Source: a virus. Taken from it: 64,000 bases of DNA. The notes beneath the pieces were generated by a model. The model was not told where the DNA came from. It made no database searches and worked only from the letters and a program-made list of their open reading frames with translations. The stretch covers positions 26,883 through 90,882 of the IMG/VR virus record IMGVR_UViG_3300005253_000031; one strand, given 5' to 3'. A program made the position numbers and the translations under genes. This document shows positions 49,600-64,000 of the stretch, in pieces (within the stretch, counting starts at the first letter, position 1; the number at the start of each line of letters is the position of its first letter).

Positions 49600-50163
49600 T
49601 CATTTGTCTAGCTTGTTTAGTATAGCCGATACTCCTTTGAGAATACTCGGTCCCTTGGACATGCGATTTATCGGACCATTCATTATTGACGCCACCACTC
49701 CGTGCAGCTTCTCCCAACGCCCCGGATGATGGGGATCTCTCGCCATTTCACTCCAGGCAACTTTAAGTGCTTGTTTGCCCGCAGGATCCTCTACGGTTGG
49801 ATATAACTGATATACCGCGTCTTTAACAGCGGATATATCTCCCCCTTCTTTCAGGTCTCCTATGGCGCTTAGGGTGTTGCGCTCGTGCTCAAATCGCTGT
49901 GGTTTAACTGTGGGCGCTTGTCCTGCTGAACCGCTGGGTTTCGTCCATCGATGACTTTGTGTATCCCACTGCAATCCGGGCCTAGGCGGAGGGCCTGGAG
50001 GTCCCTGCTTTACCAGTAGTTTACTCACGCCGTTTAATATTGCTTGTCCATTCATTTTCTTCTCCACCTTGGCCTTAATCGAACCACAGTAACTCTCCGG
50101 ACTATCTTTATCCTGATTCTTACTTACGCAATCTGCGAAATTGCGATATGATCCCACGGGCAT
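49600..50163 (-). CDS. Putative internal head protein with GPPGPPPRPG motif
   Basis: Shares KQGPPGPPPRPGLxW...RW with the 1241-aa head protein. Confidence 0.55.
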   Translation of the reverse strand: MPVGSYRNFADCVSKNQDKDSPESYCGSIKAKVEKKMNGQAILNGVSKLLVKQGPPGPPPRPGLQWDTQSHRWTKPSGSAGQAPTVKPQRFEHERNTLSAIGDLKEGGDISAVKDAVYQLYPTVEDPAGKQALKVAWSEMARDPHHPGRWEKLHGVVASIMNGPINRMSKGPSILKGVSAILNKLDK

Positions 50164-53839: not shown

Positions 53840-54139
53840 CTAAATTGTTGGGGTATGGTTTAGGGTGTCAAAACGACCCGCGATTCCATACCATTTCTGC
53901 ATCCAATCTGTTAGCTCTTCGGGATTCTCTCTATTTGCTTGTTCATTTTCCACCACCGTGGGTAAGTCTCCAAGAAGAATTCTGGCGGCGTTGAGTTCCG
54001 CAAACGAGAGAGTCGTGTTCACCAGTTTTGGTTCCTTTTTATTGATCCAACCCTTCTGTCCGAACTCGCCGTAGTCTACCTCGTAGGGCTTGTTGAACCT
54101 ATACCATTGACGTAGGAACCATCCTTTAACTGTCTTCAT
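53840..54139 (-). CDS. Hypothetical protein
   Basis: ORF track; SD AAGGAG. Confidence 0.45.
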   Translation of the reverse strand: MKTVKGWFLRQWYRFNKPYEVDYGEFGQKGWINKKEPKLVNTTLSFAELNAARILLGDLPTVVENEQANRENPEELTDWMQKWYGIAGRFDTLNHTPTI

Positions 54140-54142
54140 GAA

Positions 54143-54412
54143 TTACTCCTTTACATCGTTAGGATAACACTCATTACATGCGCCGTCAGGCCCAGTACAA
54201 TTACAGGTTTGTCGTAGCTTGAAAACTATGCTGCCATCACCAGATCCCCCTGAAACTAGATCATAGCCTTCTTCATCCATGTTGGTTAATACAGCTTCTA
54301 GGTCTGTAGCATTGGATACATACGCAGGCGCTTCGCTATCTCTAGTCCAGTCAATGTCAAATCGTTTACGTAGTGCGTACACAGTACCTGCAATGAACTT
54401 CTGTTTGCTCAT
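54143..54412 (-). CDS. Hypothetical protein
   Basis: ATGA overlap with the HNH gene. Confidence 0.45.
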   Translation of the reverse strand: MSKQKFIAGTVYALRKRFDIDWTRDSEAPAYVSNATDLEAVLTNMDEEGYDLVSGGSGDGSIVFKLRQTCNCTGPDGACNECYPNDVKE

Positions 54413-55086
54413 CGTTGCTCCTTTCTAGCTAACTCTATTGGCCACAGCTCTCTGCGATGTCCACCCTGGTGGCACTTACTGCAAAGGGTTACAACGTGGC
54501 TCTCATCTCTACAGGTGGCGTCATAACAGAGGTGGTGTACCTCTAGACGCTTTCCCGGCTTGTCGCATGCTAGTACACACTTGTTACCGTCGCGCTCTAG
54601 GATGCTGTTTCTTAACGGTATCCAATCGTTACCGTAGGGGTCGCCTGTGTGCGGCCAGTCCACACGTAACTTGAACTTATTGGTTGTCTTAGCCTGACAG
54701 CTTGTACTACAGTATCTAACTCTCGCCAGTGACGGCGGGGTGTCAACTACGTTAATGCAGCCATCGGCTAAACACTCGCGAATTATATGCTCCTTGCGAT
54801 TCCAGGCCGGTTTGCCTGTCGGGAAATGTAACCCAACCTTTCTCCCCCGCTTCTTCTGCCCGGGCTTTCCCCCAAGAGCTTCTCTTTGTTTCTCGGCCCA
54901 TTCGGGATCTTCCCATTTATCCGCCATATAGTCGGTGGATTTACCCTTGTTCCACGGCATGTGGCCTCTATCATATCTATGGGGTGGCGTATGCCTTCCA
55001 TTAGTACAGCCGTTTTCAACGCCTACGCAATCGTGCTTTATACTCTTGCGATTTTCAACCTTCCAGGTTTTACCTTTCGTTCCCAT
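54409..55086 (-). mobile_element. Free-standing HNH homing endonuclease
   Basis: PWNKG, YCSTSC, ILERDGNKC...LEVHH...VTLCSKCH. Confidence 0.8.
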
Positions 55087-55257
55087 TGTACTCCCTTCCA
55101 CTCAAGTTATTACTTACATTATACCCCAAAGAGAAGGATCAACGAACGTTAGGAAAATTGCCTTAATGCCTGCGAGCAAATCAATGGTTAATTTAGGACG
55201 TATTAGCGGGGGCTAAATGTGTCGCACCACCCAGCCCCTTTAGCTATTTAGGATAGT

Positions 55258-56703
55258 TTAGGTTAAGTTAACACCATCGCTGAGATCTGTTACTTTTCCT
55301 TGAGCTCTAAAGTTATAACAACGTAAGTTAGCGCTCGTTAAGAAAATTGCTTTAATCCCAAGCATATTATTATGTATATAGTCTCTCGACTCTAGATACT
55401 GCGTGGTAAACAGGACTGGTACCTCCAGATACCTTGTGTCCAGCACTAGGAAGTCCGTGCCCCGTATGCCATCGTCTCCGGCCGCCAACGTCCACACAGG
55501 TGGGGTATCTACGTCCGTGAACAGAGGAATCTTCTTGTAGGTGCTTACCTCGAAGCCGGTTTCGTATCCAGGAAGGGTAGCCTCGCCGCCCATCTTCACC
55601 TGGAACTTGCCCTCGCTCATAAAGTGCTGGTTGGCTTGCAGGATCGTACCTAGACGAACCTCCTGCTCAACGCCAGTTACAAACAGGTCGGGCTCAAAGC
55701 CGTTCTGTCGAATGTTTTGCACCACTCGGTCGATCTGGGACGTGGCCAGATGCCTCAGGGTTCCACTGTTGCCGTTGATGTTGCCCGCGGCATTCCATCC
55801 ACCAGCAGTCCTGGCCCCGAAGGTCAAGCTACCGTACAGCGGACCATTGGAAATAGCTACGCCGTTAACGGTCCTACCGTCCTGGTTGATTACATCGTCA
55901 ATGCTCCACATACCCCCGCGACTGCGGGTATAGATTACGGCATCTGCATCTGGATCTCCGCCGGAGGTAGCGGTTGCCGTAATGGTATCACCTGAAATGG
56001 AGGTTACCGTGGTGAAAATACCCGTGGCCTCGTTAGCCCCCGAGTTGGCCGTGGAGTGAAAAACGTCTCCGATTCCGATATACGCTCCACCACCAGTGCC
56101 CACATCGAAGGAAGCAGCACCGTTGTCCGTGATTACCCGTTGGGCGGCTGGATAAAGGAGTTGCTGGTTGAGGTTCTTCAGATGGTCGACTTCGGAAGAC
56201 TCCTGCTCAACTGCCAACGCGTCCCCAAGACCGCCCTCAAGGGTAGCGAGGAACTGGGCTAGAGCGGAGACGCCCATGGAGGTTACTATAAACGAAGGCT
56301 GTACCTGAACCGTTTGCAGGTCCGGGGAGTCAATCGTAGGAAGTGCTGAGGTTTCACCCACGCCCTGGGTAGAGGCGTTTCGTCCGGAACGGATCCTCCA
56401 ACCTGTAGTAGGGCCCCAGGCCACCTTCCTCAACAGATTGAAAAATCGGGTTTGGCTGTTCAGGGAATCCCACACCTTAGCACCGAAGGTGTTGGTGAAG
56501 AAGTCCGACTGAACTAGCGTGTCGCCCGCGCCAGTGATATCCTTACGCAAGAGAGCGCCAGGACCAAAGTATCCGTACTGGGCGGTGCGTTGACTGCCCG
56601 GTGTAGTCGCCAGCCAATCTGCCAGAGTTGCTGGCTGAAAGCCTATGCTCTTACTCGTGTTGGCGGCATAGGAACCTGTGTTGTACAAACTGTCCTGAGT
56701 CAT
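55258..56703 (-). CDS. Major capsid protein (HK97 fold)
   Basis: 481 aa directly after the scaffold; FGAKVWDSLN, GVGETSALP, YKKIPLFTD, LVLDTRYL, QGKVTDL are typical MCP elements. Confidence 0.8.
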   Translation of the reverse strand: MTQDSLYNTGSYAANTSKSIGFQPATLADWLATTPGSQRTAQYGYFGPGALLRKDITGAGDTLVQSDFFTNTFGAKVWDSLNSQTRFFNLLRKVAWGPTTGWRIRSGRNASTQGVGETSALPTIDSPDLQTVQVQPSFIVTSMGVSALAQFLATLEGGLGDALAVEQESSEVDHLKNLNQQLLYPAAQRVITDNGAASFDVGTGGGAYIGIGDVFHSTANSGANEATGIFTTVTSISGDTITATATSGGDPDADAVIYTRSRGGMWSIDDVINQDGRTVNGVAISNGPLYGSLTFGARTAGGWNAAGNINGNSGTLRHLATSQIDRVVQNIRQNGFEPDLFVTGVEQEVRLGTILQANQHFMSEGKFQVKMGGEATLPGYETGFEVSTYKKIPLFTDVDTPPVWTLAAGDDGIRGTDFLVLDTRYLEVPVLFTTQYLESRDYIHNNMLGIKAIFLTSANLRCYNFRAQGKVTDLSDGVNLT

Positions 56704-56736
56704 AATCTCATATACCTCTCTTGTGTTCTCGTTTAT

Positions 56737-57396
56737 TTAGAAAATTCGGTCGGAGAGATCCCCAACCTGCGTCCTAAATCGATTAAGTTCCTTAAATGAC
56801 TTGCCCTTTGCAGCTTCCTGCATCTCACGGGTCAACTGAGGCTGGGCCCCGTTAGGGATCCGAGTCTCACCGCCGCTAGCAGGAACAACACCCTTGGCAA
56901 TAACCTGAGAGCCAGACAAACCCTCAACTACCTTGGACAGCTTGGCAATCTGCTTCAGCATTGCGCTGTAGGACATTCCGCCAGGTCCAAAAGTCTCTTC
57001 GTCCTTGTCTCCGGCTTGGTCGCCAGCGGGAGAGGGTTCATTGCCCTCGATTGCAGTGTCCTTCTCGTCCCACTTAGAGTCTTCCTCCGAAGAGGCCTGC
57101 TCGGCAGCATCGGCGTAACCCTTCTTAGTTCTAAAGCTCTTACGCATCCGGGCGAGATACATGTCCTCGTCCTCGTTGTCATAGGGCATCATGTCGTCAT
57201 TACCATTGATGGCGTCCATATCGCTATTGGGACCGTTCTTCTCGATGTCGGGCAAATCCTCTTCCTCTCGGGGCATATCCTCCGGGTAATCCGCTTCCTT
57301 GTAGACATCCTTTGCCATGTTCAGGACGTGGCCTGTAAGCTGTCGCAACGAATCGTGGACAGTTTCCAGCGTAATGGTTTTCTCGTTCTCAGGCAT
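56737..57396 (-). CDS. Scaffolding protein
   Basis: Very acidic, low complexity; between the protease and MCP genes. Confidence 0.6.
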   Translation of the reverse strand: MPENEKTITLETVHDSLRQLTGHVLNMAKDVYKEADYPEDMPREEEDLPDIEKNGPNSDMDAINGNDDMMPYDNEDEDMYLARMRKSFRTKKGYADAAEQASSEEDSKWDEKDTAIEGNEPSPAGDQAGDKDEETFGPGGMSYSAMLKQIAKLSKVVEGLSGSQVIAKGVVPASGGETRIPNGAQPQLTREMQEAAKGKSFKELNRFRTQVGDLSDRIF

Positions 57397-57492
57397 TGGT
57401 TTCCTCCATACCCCGTCCAGAGGGGCTATTTATAATCTGTAGTTATATATTACTATCTATTTGGTTATACGTAAATACGTAAAACACGGTTT

Positions 57493-57645
57493 TTACCGCG
57501 TTGGTTGCTGTTCCTCCCCGCTTTCGTCAACACGCACGATAGCCAAGCCCCATTTACTGCTTCCAAACGTCAGCAGCCAAATGCTGATTACGTTACGAAC
57601 CTTCACCTTGCTCATCCACTGGTCTGTGAATCCCCACTTGATCAC
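57493..57645 (-). CDS. 50-aa hypothetical protein
   Basis: GTG start with GGAGGT SD and TATAAT upstream; hand translation MIKWGFTDQWMSKVKVRNVISIWLL... Confidence 0.45.
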   Translation of the reverse strand: MIKWGFTDQWMSKVKVRNVISIWLLTFGSSKWGLAIVRVDESGEEQQPTR

Positions 57646-57684
57646 TGTTAACCTCCGGTTATTATATCGATAACCTAAACTGTA

Positions 57685-57713
57685 TTGCTATTGGTTGCTA
57701 GATGTAGTAATAT
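57685..57713 (+). promoter_or_regulatory. Sigma70-like promoter for the plus-strand cassette
   Basis: TTGCTA-17 nt-TAATAT, followed by SD AAGGGAG before ATG 57748. Confidence 0.55.
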
Positions 57714-57747
57714 GAGTATGTAAGGAAAATACAAGGGAGTTACACAG

Positions 57748-58062
57748 ATGAAAATCAATTACTACAAACGAGTGCGGGCCAGTAGGGCGGGTTGCTTGAT
57801 GTCAACGGTATGTTCGTACTGTTATGTAAGTGGCAAGCGTATCGCCTTCTTCGGAGAATCCCCTAATGGGGGAGTAGTCAACGGGCCTCGTGAAATCGAC
57901 CGCGAGTTTGGAAAGCGAATCTGGAAGGCTGCGCAGAAGCACCTACGCACCGAACATAACAAAGAAATGGTTAAAAACCGTCTTGGTAGCTGGATAGTTA
58001 CCAAGACCAAACCCCAATCAGATATGGGAGTAGAACATGAAGTCGACGAGTTTGGAGCGTAA
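57748..58062 (+). CDS. Hypothetical protein (C2H2-like)
   Basis: SD AAGGGAG; CSYC...HLRTEH. Confidence 0.55.
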   Translation: MKINYYKRVRASRAGCLMSTVCSYCYVSGKRIAFFGESPNGGVVNGPREIDREFGKRIWKAAQKHLRTEHNKEMVKNRLGSWIVTKTKPQSDMGVEHEVDEFGA

Positions 58063-58134
58063 TATGGATAACAAACTGAAAAACACCTTCTTCGCCTTCC
58101 TAGGCTCAATGGGCATGTTCGCCCTACTGATTCA

Positions 58135-58365
58135 ATGCGGAACGTAGTGCTACGGAGCATCGAGGTCCTTACTCACCTAATGGTCCTCGAACTCCTAATC
58201 ATTTTGGGGTTTGACATGATACAACGACTGGTTCTAATGTCCGCCTATCCCCTGTTCACGTTTTTCCAGGCGGCACCCGAAGGGGTATACGTGGTACTAC
58301 TCCTGGGCTCTGCGGTATTCCTGGGTCTCATGCGAATCGCTCTAAGGGGAGTATCATTCCGATGA
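58135..58365 (+). CDS. Small membrane protein
   Basis: Two hydrophobic segments; tiles in the plus-strand cassette. Confidence 0.45.
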   Translation: MRNVVLRSIEVLTHLMVLELLIILGFDMIQRLVLMSAYPLFTFFQAAPEGVYVVLLLGSAVFLGLMRIALRGVSFR

Positions 58366-58487
58366 AACGTGTATGCGCCTGGTGCAACAAGGACATGGGC
58401 GTAAAGGAGCCCCTAGACAACAAGGGAGAAACCCACGGCATATGTCCGCCGTGCAAGGAAAAGTTCACCAAAGGAGTTAGAAAATGA
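58362..58487 (+). CDS. 41-aa Zn-finger protein
   Basis: MKRVCAWCNKDMGVKEPLDNKGETHGICPPCKEK; ATGA overlaps at both ends. Confidence 0.6.
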   Translation: MKRVCAWCNKDMGVKEPLDNKGETHGICPPCKEKFTKGVRK

Positions 58488-58771
58488 GCAATGACACGTT
58501 TAATAGAAACAGAAAATTCCTGTGCTCTCTGTGCGGAGTTAGTTACACACAAGACGAGGGCCACGACTATCGTCAATGTGTCACTCGACTCGAGGACCGG
58601 ATCGCCAACTCCAAGGAAATCATCGAGCGCTCGGAGTACAGTCTCATAAAGGCGCTTGAACATCTGGAGAAGCAGAAGAATGGCATCAAGGGCTTTGCAT
58701 TCCCGCCAGATATCAGTACCCGCGGATGGCGAAAAGCGCAAGCGCGGGGCAACGACAGTTATCCACTTTAG
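58484..58771 (+). CDS. Hypothetical protein with CxxC...H...C motif and coiled coil
   Basis: SD AAGGAG; ATGA overlap. Confidence 0.55.
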   Translation: MSNDTFNRNRKFLCSLCGVSYTQDEGHDYRQCVTRLEDRIANSKEIIERSEYSLIKALEHLEKQKNGIKGFAFPPDISTRGWRKAQARGNDSYPL

Positions 58772-58813
58772 ATCATCGACAGCCCTTATCATATTACGGG
58801 GCTTGCATTTCTG

Positions 58814-58849
58814 GGCCCCTATGTATCTAAGCATAGGGGCCTTTTCTTT
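58814..58849 (+). terminator. Intrinsic terminator of the plus-strand cassette
   Basis: GGCCCCTATG-tatctaag-CATAGGGGCC-TTTTCTTT, a perfect 10-bp stem. Confidence 0.85.
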
Positions 58850-58859
58850 GCCCTCCGTG

Positions 58860-61800
58860 TCACCTAGTCGTTCTGACTCGACTCTGCTTACGTTGGATAA
58901 GGGGCAATCCAAAGTATGTTCCGGCCTTCAGAGCCTTGGCAATGATATCGAACTTGGCATCTTGATTTACCCCCTCTTCGCATAGAGTTATCTCAAGTAG
59001 CTGAAGTTGGCCTATATCAAAAAAACATTTATCTCCCTCACATATCCACTGTGGATTAGAGGCATTGCCACTAATACTGAAACTCTTCAATTTACCCGAT
59101 TCTATATCGTCTATGACCTGCTTACAAACTTCCGGCGCAGCTTCGTCTGTGCGGACCTCGGCAATTACAAATAACCCCACGTCATCTACCTTGGTCTTAT
59201 ATATTTTACCGTCGGGGGCCGTAAACTCGGGTAAAATTTTACCTACCGTTACATTGGTATTGTGATACACTATTCCGTTGCCCACATAGGAATGATCCTC
59301 ATCGATATTGAGACAATAGGTCCACCCCTTATATAGAACACGTTGGACATCAAGAATCTTTACTCCGTTGGCCAAAACCATCTCACGAATCAACTTATCG
59401 TCGGATCGAGTTTTCTTAGAATGGCACGATGGACAAAGAGCCTGTAAATTCTCCAGTCTATCGTCGCTTTTAACATTGTTTATGTGGTCGACATGTAGTC
59501 CAGAATGATAGTTGTTATTTTGTAGTACCTCTCCATTTGTAATTCCACAACGTACACATGCATGGCCATCACGCTTCAATATCTCTCGACGAGTTTTATA
59601 AAAACTCCAATTATACTCTCCACCGCTACGGCCACCACGCCAATTGGGGTGTTTCTCTCCCCGCCATTGTTTATGTTTCTCACTCTTAGCGGCCGCTTTT
59701 TCCTCCCCATATACCTCGGCCCACGTCTTTCCACGACGTTGCTCAGCGGTAATTCGTGCTGCTTCTCCCGACGTAACTTTATTTGGCCCCGGCTTCCACC
59801 AATGTTTTCGACCCACATGGGCTTTCCTAATCTTTTCTTTCGTTTCTGTACTTTGCGGCCCACGCGGTCGAGCATGCATCAAGACGTGTTGCACTGTAAG
59901 CTGACCCGCTTCGATCCAACCCGCTGTGGTCAATACCTTATGATCTTTGGTAATCTGTATTGTTACACCATTTGATAGCCTCAACTTAATAAGCTCTTCA
60001 TTCTTCCAAAACTTGGCCACTTTGTTTACCGTTTGTTTTCGTCCTTTATGTGTATAAACGCTGTCACCTTCCTCAATTTCATCAATTCTCTTAAAAGTTT
60101 TGTATTCTCCGGGTCCTCCTCTCTTAATCAATACCCCGGTTTCGGGGACCAAACAATGCATTATATTTACATTTGCATAACGTCCATCCTCGGCCAAAAA
60201 ACGGGGTAAGTCATCCGCTAAGGTCTTATGCCCGATGCGATGCCCCTCAAGATCAATCATCACGGGCGAGGCGTAACCCGCCACCACAAAACGATTTTCT
60301 CGGGCCTTACCCGTGTACTGCTTGGATAACACCTGCATGTCGTATTGCGCCGGAGCTTCGACTGCTTTTACTATACGTAGTTCTCTGGGACTCGTTTTTT
60401 CGTTTTTTCGTTGAATCCTCCGCGCGCTTCCACCTACTGGCGTGTGCACATCCGAGCCTACCATGCTGTCCCCAGGCCCCGCTATTCCCCTACCGCCGTC
60501 TCCTTCCTTCTCCATTGGAGGATTTCCGTCGTCATGACCAAAAGGTCTCTCTCTCCCGCCCTCTGCCTGATGTGAGATACCTTCAGATACCCTGTTAATA
60601 ACCCTCATACGCTCATAGGCGTGGCCCGAATTTACGTTAGAAGCAGTGGTGTGCTTGTCTATCTCTTCCTGATCATCTAGTTCATCAATCATTTCGTCCT
60701 CTTGATAGTAATCCTTGTCCACCTTGGTATTCGCGGAAACATGTTCCAATACTGTTACACCACTTATCTGCTTCACCTTAAACTTGGCGTTACGTGGTAG
60801 AATTAGCTCATATTCATTAGGATGACCCAATCCAAACTTGGTCCCCTTTGGCAACAATATCTGTATTGACGTGCCGAACTCTCGAGCCGTCTGCGCCAGT
60901 AACGAGGTGCTGGTAAATCCAGGATCGCTTATTACCTCACCATTCACCATGTCCTCTAGATCCATTCCGCCCCGGAAAACCAACATAGGTTCGGGAAGCT
61001 CTCGTTTTGACACGGCGGCATCAAGTATAGCTACATCCTCTGGTTTTCCTCCGCTCCTCAACTCATCGTTTATCTCCTCGAACAAAGATCCTGAGTACGT
61101 GTTTAACGCAGCTTGCTCATCGTGTGTTATTGTATCCCCAGTTTCTTTCAGTAGTTCATTGTATGTATGGTTCGCCGTAGTCGGACTTCGGTGAATTACC
61201 ATTTCTCCACCAAATGAGGGATGCTCTATTTGCCGTCTGCGCCACCTGCTAGTTTCAGCATGCCATTCTAATCCAGGCCTTGGAGGAGGTCCCGGCGGAC
61301 CTTGCTTGTGTATTGTCTTAATCCAGTCGTTGGCTCCCTTGCCTGCCATATCGTGCGCGGCCATCTCGGGGTCTGGGTCCTCGCCGAATATGACTTCCCC
61401 TTTACCCGCGTTTGGCCCTACGGCTTCCTGTTGAACTGCCTTGCTCACCTGCAATATAGGCAATCGCTCGCACCTACATCCCAGATGTGTATCTGTTATC
61501 GGACGTGGCCCTTCTCCCATCTTGAAGCGCCTACCGCTAAGTCGCTTACATATGTCGTCTACCTTGGCGTCCTTCTCGGTGCTCCAAAACTCCTCGTCAA
61601 TTCCCGCTACTTGATACACTAATAGGTTACCGATGTCGTTGAGCTTGCTGGCCTCGTTGGCTGCTATGCGTTCGGCTCGATCTCGATTGAACAACGTAAA
61701 AGCCCGCTGAGATAGCTCCGGCTCCTTAACGTCCTTTAAGTCGTACATTTTGCCCGCCGTTGCGTTGCGGATATGACTGTACCATTGTCTCGTAAACTTC

Positions 61801-62585
61801 TTGGCGGCCTTATCCGCTATGTCTGCTATATCCGTCGGTTTAACCCCGAGTTGCTTATGCCTGCTGGCTGCTCGTACAATAGCTCGTCTTGCGTAGAACT
61901 CCATGGGTTCCTTCATCAATTTCTCGAAGCCGGTCCAGAACGTCGGTTTGTTCACCAGGTCCTCTAGTCCCTGGGCGCGTGCAAGATCCCACCCATCCCT
62001 TAAGGCCCTCTGCATCACCGAGGTCATGGCGCCCTCTAGTGGCATGGCTTTGAGTAGATTCACGAACATGCGGGTTAACGATGGCCGATCGTTGGGGGAC
62101 AGATGGGTGTCCCAGCGTGTGTTAGCCTTGTCTTCGGTCTCCTCTTCGTATATCTCGTCGTCAGACAGGTACTCTCCGCCATGCTCTGAGGGAAGCGGGG
62201 TCCCGTACGCAGCAGGTATGTTGTCTTTCAGCACCCCGATCTCCTCCTGGTATGCTGGGTTGGGCTCCTCTACATCGGAGGCATCTCCTATAACATCATC
62301 ACTGCCGACGAATCGTGTGCGCCGTTGCTGTACATCTCGAGGGCCCCAGTCTGCGCCCCCCTTATTACGTACTCGTCTAGTAGTCCCAGAGTCAACAGTC
62401 GAAAGAGGTGCCGCAAAAGCCCCTTTCCCATCTCCATGGGCGGAGGCCCTGGACACCTGCTCGTTTATGGCAGCGAGGTTTCGACCTATCTGTAGTGCAC
62501 CCTCAATGGTGTCTGGGTCGAATCCCCTCTCTATAGCTTGTTCCGTTGCTATTTCCTGGTCGCTTTGCTTATGAATTACCTTCAT
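58860..62585 (-). CDS. Head polyprotein: MuF/gp7-like domain, ADP-ribosyltransferase, and HK97-type prohead protease with intein
   Basis: MuF: ERIAANE...W...D.KVDDIC...HLGCRC. ART: YSG...INDELR...VFRG...FTSTS...EYELILPR. Protease: VVAGYAS...IDLEG...MH[intein]...IESGKLKSFSISG...LLEITL...VNQDAKF. Confidence 0.88.
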   Translation of the reverse strand: MKVIHKQSDQEIATEQAIERGFDPDTIEGALQIGRNLAAINEQVSRASAHGDGKGAFAAPLSTVDSGTTRRVRNKGGADWGPRDVQQRRTRFVGSDDVIGDASDVEEPNPAYQEEIGVLKDNIPAAYGTPLPSEHGGEYLSDDEIYEEETEDKANTRWDTHLSPNDRPSLTRMFVNLLKAMPLEGAMTSVMQRALRDGWDLARAQGLEDLVNKPTFWTGFEKLMKEPMEFYARRAIVRAASRHKQLGVKPTDIADIADKAAKKFTRQWYSHIRNATAGKMYDLKDVKEPELSQRAFTLFNRDRAERIAANEASKLNDIGNLLVYQVAGIDEEFWSTEKDAKVDDICKRLSGRRFKMGEGPRPITDTHLGCRCERLPILQVSKAVQQEAVGPNAGKGEVIFGEDPDPEMAAHDMAGKGANDWIKTIHKQGPPGPPPRPGLEWHAETSRWRRRQIEHPSFGGEMVIHRSPTTANHTYNELLKETGDTITHDEQAALNTYSGSLFEEINDELRSGGKPEDVAILDAAVSKRELPEPMLVFRGGMDLEDMVNGEVISDPGFTSTSLLAQTAREFGTSIQILLPKGTKFGLGHPNEYELILPRNAKFKVKQISGVTVLEHVSANTKVDKDYYQEDEMIDELDDQEEIDKHTTASNVNSGHAYERMRVINRVSEGISHQAEGGRERPFGHDDGNPPMEKEGDGGRGIAGPGDSMVGSDVHTPVGGSARRIQRKNEKTSPRELRIVKAVEAPAQYDMQVLSKQYTGKARENRFVVAGYASPVMIDLEGHRIGHKTLADDLPRFLAEDGRYANVNIMHCLVPETGVLIKRGGPGEYKTFKRIDEIEEGDSVYTHKGRKQTVNKVAKFWKNEELIKLRLSNGVTIQITKDHKVLTTAGWIEAGQLTVQHVLMHARPRGPQSTETKEKIRKAHVGRKHWWKPGPNKVTSGEAARITAEQRRGKTWAEVYGEEKAAAKSEKHKQWRGEKHPNWRGGRSGGEYNWSFYKTRREILKRDGHACVRCGITNGEVLQNNNYHSGLHVDHINNVKSDDRLENLQALCPSCHSKKTRSDDKLIREMVLANGVKILDVQRVLYKGWTYCLNIDEDHSYVGNGIVYHNTNVTVGKILPEFTAPDGKIYKTKVDDVGLFVIAEVRTDEAAPEVCKQVIDDIESGKLKSFSISGNASNPQWICEGDKCFFDIGQLQLLEITLCEEGVNQDAKFDIIAKALKAGTYFGLPLIQRKQSRVRTTR
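59259..60155 (-). mobile_element. Intein (299 aa) with HNH endonuclease, in the prohead protease
   Basis: Starts CLVPETGVL, has TKDHKVL block B, ends HSYVGNGIVYHN, then Thr +1; internal CVRCG...HVDHINNVKSDDRLENLQALCPSCH. Confidence 0.92.
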
Positions 62586-62942
62586 TTCTCATTGCTTACC
62601 TCCAGGTAAGTCTATCAAATATGGTGTTATAGGTAAACCGGACTACTTGTACGGCCGATACTTATAGTGAACATGTGGGTTAGCCCGACAAATCCAAATA
62701 CACTCTGTATGTACTAGATCTAAATGACAGGCCTGCCATTTGTGTCTATGAAAAGGCCATATTCTCATCCTCGGTATCTCCTTTTATCCATTAGTTGCTC
62801 CACATACCACACAGAAGTGGTTTGGCGTAAATACATGTTCATGTTTCGAACCTACATAAACACGAAAACTGCCCCCATTCCTATTCTGGTCTCTAATTTC
62901 CTCTAGTTTATGTATGAGTTCATTTACGAACATTTTCGTCTC

Positions 62943-63260
62943 CTATACAAACAGGTTATCTAGATCGTAATGCTCTTCCTCTACCGGCTGTTTCGTATTC
63001 TTTTCTATCAAGTACGTAATGGCGTCGCGTAGCTCAGTCATCTGTGTTATTGATCCGTGCATCCAGATCTCTTCTTTGTCGTTTTGGTCCCGAATACCCA
63101 GCCATATCATAGGTTCGATTTGCGCCCTACTCTCGTTACCCACCTGGATCCTATAGGTCGGTATTTTCGCAGCTTCCGGAGTCACGTGCTGTACGCTGCT
63201 GATTCGATCCACGTGTGGATAGTTAACTGCTATTAGAAGTGCTGTGTCTATTGGTGTCAT
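62943..63260 (-). CDS. Hypothetical protein
   Basis: ATG at 63260 with AAGGAG SD. Confidence 0.5.
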   Translation of the reverse strand: MTPIDTALLIAVNYPHVDRISSVQHVTPEAAKIPTYRIQVGNESRAQIEPMIWLGIRDQNDKEEIWMHGSITQMTELRDAITYLIEKNTKQPVEEEHYDLDNLFV

Positions 63261-63363
63261 TTCATGCTCCTTCGTTATACAGGGTGGGAGCACGTCATCT
63301 AGGCATACCCCCACAAGACTAGTATCTCCCAAATACTATCCTATATACATTATACCGCGGATG

Positions 63364-64000
63364 TTAATCTCCAGCGAACTCGGCTACAATATCCCATAGG
63401 TCAACACCTGTAGGGGCCGTTAACCTAATTAAAAACTGCCCCCTGTCGTTTGTGGTAGCCGATAAGCCGTTAACAACTATGAAACGATTGGCCAACGGTG
63501 TCCCGTCCACGGCATCAAGCAAATTACCAGATACGTCAAAAACACTACCCGCCTCGACACGCTCGGGAATAAACACACGTAGTTCACTAGCCCGACGCGA
63601 TTTTGGATCAATTACGATCGTCTTAACTACTCTAACACCTTCATACAACATCTCTTCTTCTCCGTCTCCTACTGCTTCCCCAAAGAACGGGGTATCTAAA
63701 CTTAGGGGTGAACTGAACGCAGCTACGACATTAGCCATCTTGTTGGCCAACGCTACCGTGCTGCTTCCTGCAAAGATCAGCCCGACATTTCTAACCATTC
63801 CGTCGCTGCCCGAGCGATACACCAGAGACCCCGAGTCCCCACCTGCAATTCCCGCACCGTTGCCATCGGCGGCTTGAAACATCAACTGATCGACGAACTC
63901 CCGCACGTCGTCGGGCCCAAAACCTACTTGAATTACTGCTGCATCATCCAACAGTTTCAAGCTGGTCCGGCCCGTAGTGCGGCCATGCTTTTCACAAATG
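63364..64000 (-). CDS. Trypsin-like serine protease with C-terminal Ig-like domain (5'-truncated by window edge)
   Basis: KHGRTTGRT (open to the window end), GGDSGS catalytic Ser motif, VGLIFAGS; C-terminal ATTNDRGQF Ig-like motif. Confidence 0.8.
   Translation of the reverse strand, partial: ICEKHGRTTGRTSLKLLDDAAVIQVGFGPDDVREFVDQLMFQAADGNGAGIAGGDSGSLVYRSGSDGMVRNVGLIFAGSSTVALANKMANVVAAFSSPLSLDTPFFGEAVGDGEEEMLYEGVRVVKTIVIDPKSRRASELRVFIPERVEAGSVFDVSGNLLDAVDGTPLANRFIVVNGLSATTNDRGQFLIRLTAPTGVDLWDIVAEFAGD

Follow-up and report, generated by a model that had tools for sequence, protein, structure and literature searches.

A single stop-free frame of 1241 aa on the minus strand (58860-62585) of the 64,000-nt window, that is, the whole stretch of viral DNA analysed here, encodes what we read as a polyvalent head protein (P0001) of a probably virulent tailed phage. 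In this reading, to which the sequence leads us to give a probability of roughly 0.65, an intein would be spliced out, the cargo would be packaged into the head and released by the protease, and an ADP-ribosyltransferase (ART) would be injected. The domains of P0001 follow the order N-terminal module, MuF, tag, ART, linker and prohead protease, and all of them are intact at the sequence level. A packaged effector polyprotein is of a known kind, and published precedent exists for each element (PMC5512222, PMC9503650). Three features seem to be new: the prohead protease contains an intein, a polyvalent protein with a protease includes an R-S-E ART, and a 24-residue Pro/Trp tag precedes the ART.

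The original prediction had described one ORF with MuF, an R-STS-ExE ART and an HK97-type prohead protease, separated by low-complexity linkers. The open frame and Pfam matches above cut-off confirmed the domains, and acidic, Gly-rich linkers are indeed present between them. It had also held that an assembly artefact would undermine the ORF; this was not borne out, as a protein identical to P0001 is on record from 3 contigs and several sources. The ORF belongs to the late genes of an uncultured phage of 91 kb, whose genome record (90,882 bp with a 121-bp terminal repeat) is rated complete. Immediately downstream are genes for a major capsid protein and for an acidic, scaffold-like protein, and two genes upstream lies a trypsin-like protease gene, whose product could share in maturation. 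No portal gene adjoins the MuF gene, the sole portal-like match being weak and about 27 kb away, and the neighbouring genes of the polyprotein are without family match. A 12-bp G+C-rich hairpin (58813-58842, no strand assigned) sits just past the polyprotein stop, before a convergent plus-strand cassette of small ORFs (57748-58771). A 194-aa ORF overlapping the gene end (58328-58912) was judged spurious, as it matched no family and its composition is unlike that of a protein. Rfam gave no match in 54000-64000. GenBank phages gave no DNA match to the sequence, and their protein-level matches were short only.

The N-terminal module (residues 1-120, 62226-62585, minus strand) ends in a hydrophobic-x-Lys boundary and is shared with two other proteins. 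It is 50% identical in P0168. In P0134 the first 120 aa are the same throughout (100% identity), and after them come the tag and another ART, an apparent module swap. The module is followed by an acidic linker and the MuF head-morphogenesis domain (61311-62225, minus strand). Phage_Mu_F (PF04233) matched residues 298-373 (61467-61694) at 30.1 bits against a cut-off of 29.6, and the MuF region of P0168 is 61% identical to that of P0001. Between the ART and the protease, a second acidic, Gly-rich linker (60381-60725, minus strand) carries a conserved linear motif, the second in the protein (residues 690-724, 60414-60518), which comparison of the protease polyproteins found common to them.

The ART occupies 60726-61223 on the minus strand. 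ADPrib_exo_Tox (PF03496) matched residues 476-616 at 58.6 bits against a cut-off of 23.4, and at 61.7 bits in the genome scan. The predicted R-STS-ExE triad proved real: R538, S559-T560-S561 and E591-x-E593 align in register with the matching motifs of VIP2. Of 16 tag-ART relatives, 15 share this register, and P0114 was left unaligned. An AlphaFold model built from a 17-row alignment reached a pLDDT of 78.6, with a core above 90, and Foldseek matched it to C3bot, VIP2 and CDTa (E about 1e-11, TM 0.55-0.62). Profile, motifs and predicted fold together place the domain in the R-S-E C3/VIP2/Alt clade, and it is predicted to be NAD-dependent and to act on arginine. A word-based search found no close relatives of the ART, its single match being due to the tag alone.

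Directly in front of the ART, at residues 426-454 (61224-61310, minus strand), we found the 24-residue Pro/Trp tag, which the original prediction had missed. Supported by profile, consensus and model, it consists of a polyproline run and a two-Trp beta-hairpin, the latter seen in the AlphaFold model. The genome holds three copies, one in P0001 and one in each of two other phage proteins; P0017, the product of a separate 187-aa gene in the structural region (49600-50163, minus strand), carries the tag at residues 54-77. The tag profile, with a consensus drawn from 166 copies, was found in 293 protein clusters, mostly ahead of ARTs, with up to five copies per protein and usually preceded by a hydrophobic-hydrophobic-Lys site. 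Tag-bearing proteins are ART-rich and include fusions with portal and MuF domains. Among them are giants that carry between two and five tags, with up to six ART domains in one protein. A tblastn search of GenBank phages gave no match to the tag, which the low-complexity filter may hide, and none of 39 pattern matches in IMG/VR was confirmed by tblastn. A literature search found no paper on an inter-module tag of such a kind. We infer that the tag is a portable module marking cargo in this phage lineage. Tentatively, and at somewhat less than even odds, it may go further and act, in a lineage of uncultured phages, as a portable signal for capsid loading or for ejection, such that any domain behind it is head cargo. 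The multi-tag giants would then be strings of tag and cargo cut by the prohead protease, itself an intein hot spot at two active-site motifs.

The original prediction had placed a single HK97-type protease domain at 60300-58930. A protease is there, with an S78 match, but it is not one domain: alignment of homologues divides it into an N-extein (residues 736-810, 60156-60380), an intein (residues 811-1109, 59259-60155) and a C-extein (residues 1110-1241, 58863-59258), all on the minus strand. The N-extein ends in the invariant His810, and the C-extein, recognised by Pfam, PHROG and alignment, contains the Ser motif (S1170) and an E-I-T-L-C motif. Peptidase_S78 matched residues 1130-1220 only marginally (21.5 bits, cut-off 21) and scored higher, at 27.0 and 25.9 bits, in homologues free of the intein, and the PHROG head maturation protease profile matched P0001 at 4e-12. 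His810 and Ser1170 are invariant in 10 homologues. Among annotated proteins, tblastn placed halovirus prohead proteases nearest, with 33-35% identity. An hhalign comparison with HK97 gp4 placed its catalytic S114 on S1170 and its catalytic H65 one column off H810, at a non-significant probability of 0.2%. A sequence search of the PDB with an intein-free homologue returned NUDIX structures only and none for the protease. IMG/VR yielded a single relative of the protease (L002), which stands alone, has inteins of its own and is not part of a polyprotein.

The intein, also overlooked before, comprises 299 aa and lies directly after the putative catalytic His of the protease. Pfam detected Intein_splicing (45.6 bits against 35.8), NUMOD3 and an HNH endonuclease (residues 1010-1060, 59406-59558; 30.5 bits against 21.4). 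The class-1 splicing residues are all present, namely C811, block B T879-x-x-H882, H1108-N1109 and the +1 residue T1110. At this site, 15 of 20 scored homologues are intein-free, with contiguous exteins in which the His is followed by Ser/Thr-Asn (or Ser-Gly). Four homologues have an intein at the same site, two of these being mini-inteins (P0004 and P0173) without HNH endonuclease, and in relatives a further insertion site within this protease is occupied. P0001 equals intein-free homologues in the conservation of its exteins. The protease is thus, as judged from its residues, interrupted by a canonical class-1 intein with an HNH homing endonuclease, which we predict to splice; the intact splicing residues, the HNH domain and the mini-intein and intein-free alleles form the pattern expected of a mobile, splicing intein. 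Our literature search found no paper on an intein in a prohead protease.

The original prediction had proposed comparing homologues for swapped cargo at this position. Such homologues were found: ahead of the same protease, the cargo is in turn a NUDIX domain, a topoisomerase IB, an N6/N4 DNA methylase, an ATLF-like zincin or an ART.

From these features we infer packaging, cleavage, splicing, ejection and ART activity in the following order. The intein would splice out after translation and restore the protease. MuF, possibly helped by the tag and by the tail of the protease, would bring the polyprotein into the procapsid; head loading of the cargo is suggested because it is fused to MuF and a prohead protease. 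The protease would then cut the linkers, most likely behind hydrophobic-x-Lys sites, one of which precedes the tag, so that the tag-ART module is freed and stays in the head. Finally, the ART would be ejected with the DNA and, like T4 Alt, ADP-ribosylate arginines of host proteins early in infection.

We considered whether the ART might instead act late in the producing cell or procapsid, modifying phage or host proteins, or serve as assembly ballast, and not be injected at all. The gene is late, the infected cell is where its ART is made, the sequence itself gives no sign of ejection, and the published argument for injection is itself contextual (PMC9503650). However, the fusion to MuF and a head protease, together with tag-bearing ARTs fused to portal proteins, places such domains inside capsids, and T4 Alt is an established precedent of a packaged, injected R-S-E ART. 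We therefore regard this alternative as unlikely. It is somewhat less likely still that the intein-bearing protease is inactive, through lack of splicing or a Hint domain that only cleaves, and that another enzyme carries out maturation. The trypsin-like protease two genes upstream would be a candidate, and Hint domains are cleavage modules in some toxins (PT-HINT, a Pfam family). Against this stand the full set of splicing residues, exteins that have not drifted from those of intein-free homologues, the complete HNH endonuclease and the existence of mini-intein and intein-free alleles.

The presence of MuF joined to a toxin-type domain, with the convergent small-ORF cassette just downstream, might also recall a MuF polymorphic toxin of the temperate-phage kind, directed against competing bacteria and accompanied by an immunity gene not yet recognised. 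We consider this very improbable. The ART is internal, with 625 residues after it, and not C-terminal; homologues hold non-toxic cargo (NUDIX, methylase) at the same place; and the phage genome itself encodes PolA and DnaB. Moreover, the complete genome gave no match to a tyrosine integrase, Macro or ADP-ribosylhydrolase (ARH), and therefore looks like that of a virulent phage using its ART as T4 uses Alt. The lack of an obvious immunity gene, earlier called atypical, is accordingly not odd: none is expected in a complete genome that yielded no tyrosine integrase. The reading as a packaged and injected head cargo thus remains the one we prefer.

The opening minutes of an infection are decided by what the phage head carries, and outside T4 little is known of the means by which cargo reaches the capsid. 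At this locus, a candidate address tag that is short and sharply conserved stands before swappable enzymes, beside the protease that would release them, and the proposal is therefore directly testable by tag-reporter fusions. The locus also shows that polyvalent proteins with a protease can include R-S-E ARTs, and it adds the prohead protease to the intein-colonised essential phage proteins; capsid maturation would then need protein splicing.

Phage inteins are known in terminase, helicase, polymerase and ribonucleotide reductase genes. The present one resembles them in being of class 1, carrying a homing endonuclease, being inserted at a (here putative) catalytic motif of an essential gene and having intein-free and mini-intein alleles; it differs in that its host protein is a prohead protease. 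Compared with HK97 gp4 and the S78 proteases, P0001 has putative His, Ser and E-I-S/T motifs in the same order and its gene beside scaffold and capsid genes, whereas its protease lies behind about 735 residues of cargo and is split by an intein. T4 Alt is an R-S-E ART produced late and kept in the head, where the prohead protease processes it; once injected, it modifies host proteins on arginine. Its sequence similarity to P0001 is confined to the ART fold (phrog_802, E 5e-7), and Alt has a gene to itself and is not joined to MuF and a protease in a polyprotein. The MuF polymorphic toxins of temperate phages that Jamet et al. 2017 reportedly described are said to have a toxin domain at the C-terminus and an adjacent immunity gene; P0001 departs from them in the position of its toxin-type domain, in the immunity gene and in the temperate element.

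A toxin between MuF and protease had been called atypical, but polyvalent phage proteins, in which an assemblin-like peptidase is always C-terminal (Iyer et al. 2017, PMC5512222), and fusions of Alt/VIP2 ARTs to MuF and of Nudix to MuF, portal and a capsid-processing serine peptidase (Iyer et al. 2022, PMC9503650) have already been described. The latter fusions share with P0001 an Alt/VIP2-type ART joined to MuF. Among actinophages, Microbacterium phage Krampus gene 14 likewise has an ART stretch, and the matching Gilda gene is annotated as a MuF-ART fusion. Unlike P0001, Krampus gene 14, from a cultured phage, is shorter, at 472 aa, and ends just past the ART, with no room for a C-terminal protease, and Forza gene 80 ends in the ART. 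P0001 agrees with the polyvalent proteins in combining ART, protease and MuF in a virion-gene context. Like them, it carries several unrelated enzymatic domains on one polypeptide, probably virion-associated, with MuF as the putative head anchor. Their assemblin-like peptidase is C-terminal and is proposed to release the domains; in P0001, too, the protease exteins end the protein. What sets P0001 apart is its intein in the peptidase and its inter-module tag, neither of which is mentioned for the polyvalent proteins (PMC5512222).

The virus record is 90,882 bp long, has a 121-bp direct terminal repeat and is rated complete, with 104 of its 128 ORFs on the minus strand; the window covers its final 64 kb. 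On that strand lies the head polyprotein P0001, a single frame of 1241 codons (window 58860-62585). Three contigs and several archives yielded an identical sequence, so the protein is no assembly artefact and the ORF of the original prediction is real. Pfam placed Phage_Mu_F at residues 298-373, ADPrib_exo_Tox at 476-616 (well over threshold), Intein_splicing at 833-1109, NUMOD3 at 910-931, HNH at 1010-1060 and Peptidase_S78 at 1130-1220. PHROGs were concordant, adding a 'head maturation protease' family on the C-terminal part and an Alt-like ADP-ribosyltransferase (ART) family. The polyprotein architecture is real and intact.

We aligned the C-terminal 500 residues of P0001 with 14 homologues and found the protease interrupted directly behind the invariant His H810. 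The insert comprises 299 residues; it begins with Cys811, carries a block-B T-x-x-H at 879-882 and ends with His1108-Asn1109, followed by Thr1110. In 15 of 20 scorable homologues, the sequence reads through this position without an insert. The same HNH intein occupies the site in the homologues P0002 and P0003, and mini-inteins are found there in P0004 (150 residues) and the IMG/VR relative P0173 (139 residues). A second intein site is located inside the E-I-T-L-C motif of the protease, where P0003, P0010 and P0013 harbor other inteins; P0019 and P0173 depart from the family at this motif, which may be a sign of a further insert. The motif His and Ser of the P0001 protease are invariant across the family. 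HK97 gp4 has His65 (F-N-H), Ser114 (M-S-V-G) and Glu141 (E-I-S-V-C); a profile comparison, which did not reach statistical significance, paired Ser114 with S1170 of P0001 and E-I-S-V-C with E-I-T-L-C, and put His65 one column off H810. From the sequence, we conclude that a mobile class-1 intein, predicted to splice, has inserted next to the putative active-site His of the maturation protease. A genome scan identified it as the sole intein of this phage. The HK97-type protease proposed originally is matched by Peptidase_S78 and PHROGs, but the intein inside it had been overlooked. Among the journals covered by our literature search, no paper described an intein in the prohead protease of a tailed phage.

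P0173 is a stand-alone protease relative on a 172-kb IMG/VR contig (L002:7335-9428, plus strand), with its mini-intein at the same His site. A putative second insert, at the E-I-T-L motif, starts with Ala, not Cys, and the frame stops within an endonuclease-like region, so that either a broken gene or a shift to another frame is possible. Among GenBank phages, the nearest annotated relatives of the P0001 protease (C-extein, window 58863-59258, minus strand) are the prohead proteases of the haloarchaeal tailed viruses HVTV-1 and HCTV-5 (33-35% identity). The replication genes of this phage look bacterial.

The proposed VIP2/C3-like ART with its R-STS-ExE triad was borne out. R538, S559-T560-S561 and E591-x-E593 line up with the VIP2 Arg, STS and ExE motifs. 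A fold predicted from an alignment including 16 tag-ART relatives reached pLDDT 78.6 (core >90), and its best matches among solved structures were C3 exoenzymes, VIP2, CDTa and Certhrax (E ~1e-11). Among viral models, the best were ARTs of phages, and the annotation of many of these was minor capsid protein, MuF fusion or portal fusion.

A 24-residue tag stands between MuF and the ART. It consists of a Pro-Pro-Gly-Pro-Pro-Pro-Arg-Pro-Gly-Leu run, x-Trp, four residues and Arg-Trp. In the ART model the tag folds as a small beta-hairpin, and the linker that connects it to the ART has low confidence. The genome contains three copies, in P0001, the 187-aa P0017 (window 49600-50163) and P0026, and with an E cut-off of 1e-3 a profile built from them matched 293 protein clusters, 57 of them at 1e-10. 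Long proteins have 2-5 tags over the local domain threshold, with spacings mostly of 200-400 residues, and by the HMMER count as many as six stretches match; short proteins have the tag 10-20 residues from their N-terminus. Across 166 copies the core is almost invariant and preceded by two hydrophobic residues, Lys and Gln/Lys, consistent with HK97 gp5, which is cleaved after a Lys. ADPrib_exo_Tox was detected in 18 of 53 long tag proteins; among the others there were matches to topoisomerase IB, poly(A) polymerase, NUDIX, HD, ligase, three portal families, MuF and S78. A custom profile found ARTs in 41 proteins of the analysed set of ~170, nearly all with the tag and with up to six ARTs each. 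The tag has no Pfam family, and our literature search found its string in no paper.

As the original prediction had suggested, we compared homologues for swapped cargo. About 25 proteins share the P0001-type protease, most with NUDIX N-terminal to it; others carry eukaryotic-type topoisomerase IB, N6/N4 DNA methylase, an ATLF-like zincin or MuF, and the custom profile found an ART in P0006. P0134 is 100% identical to P0001 across the first 120 residues, followed by the tag and a different ART (32% identity); this switch points to a putative cassette exchange at a hydrophobic-x-Lys boundary. In P0168 the order is N-module, MuF, tag and a C-terminal stretch with R/S/ExE-like motifs read by eye, in which neither Pfam nor the custom profile detected an ART; P0002 runs linker, tag and intein-bearing protease. 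Each is recorded on an 11,134-bp contig, which may be the same one; if so, the P0001 order is kept across two ORFs. P0168 and the P0002 tail have a variant tag, G-P-P-x-x-G-L-V-P-Q-S-G-D-P-x-H-P-V-R-W-V-R-P, at the main tag's usual place. In this phage, the methylase-NUDIX protein P0026 (706 aa, with the tag and an uncharacterised tail; genome 10149-12269, outside the window, L003:1150-3270, minus strand) has its own gene, at a great distance from the head module, while relatives have its domains fused to the protease polyprotein. A second conserved linear motif stands ~50 residues ahead of the protease domain in most members of the polyprotein family (P0001 residues 690-724, window 60414-60518). 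It is Gly-rich, then has D-V-H-T-P and basic residues, and may serve for cleavage or docking.

Downstream of the polyprotein, also on the minus strand, are an acidic scaffold-like gene (56737-57396), the major capsid gene (55258-56703) and, directly after the latter, a free-standing HNH endonuclease gene (54409-55101) unrelated to the intein HNH. A strong hairpin (58813-58842) is located between the polyprotein and these capsid and scaffold-like genes. Between the polyprotein and the scaffold-like gene, a convergent cassette (57748-58771) of small ORFs occupies the minority plus strand, three of them linked by overlapping start/stop codons, and its products include a 76-aa hydrophobic and a 41-aa zinc-ribbon protein; no credible minus-strand ORF was found in this region. 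Two genes upstream, a 453-aa trypsin-like serine protease (63364-63999, continuing across the record ends to genome 846, minus strand) has His and G-D-S-G motifs and a C-terminal carboxypeptidase-regulatory-like domain, and is a second protease in the head region.

The genome encodes PolA, DnaB and RtcB, and the complete genome gave no match to tyrosine integrase, Macro or ADP-ribosylhydrolase. Therefore, the lack of an immunity gene, previously regarded as atypical, is expected for a lytic phage turning its ART on the host. A packaged ART that would be released by the protease and ejected is a reasonable mechanism, for which we infer splicing, head loading, cleavage, ejection and arginine modification.

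The architecture itself, also thought atypical, belongs to a class already described. Polyvalent proteins were defined by Iyer et al. 2017 (PMC5512222), and Iyer et al. 2022 (PMC9503650) reported fusions of Alt/VIP2 ARTs to MuF, and of NudE-like Nudix to MuF, portal and capsid-processing peptidase. Three elements seem new: an intein within the prohead protease, an R-S-E ART in a protease-bearing polyprotein and the recurrent tag. We compared P0001 with two genes of cultured phages, Krampus gene 14 (472 aa) and Forza gene 80; unlike P0001, both end at or just past the ART, leaving no space for a protease behind it.
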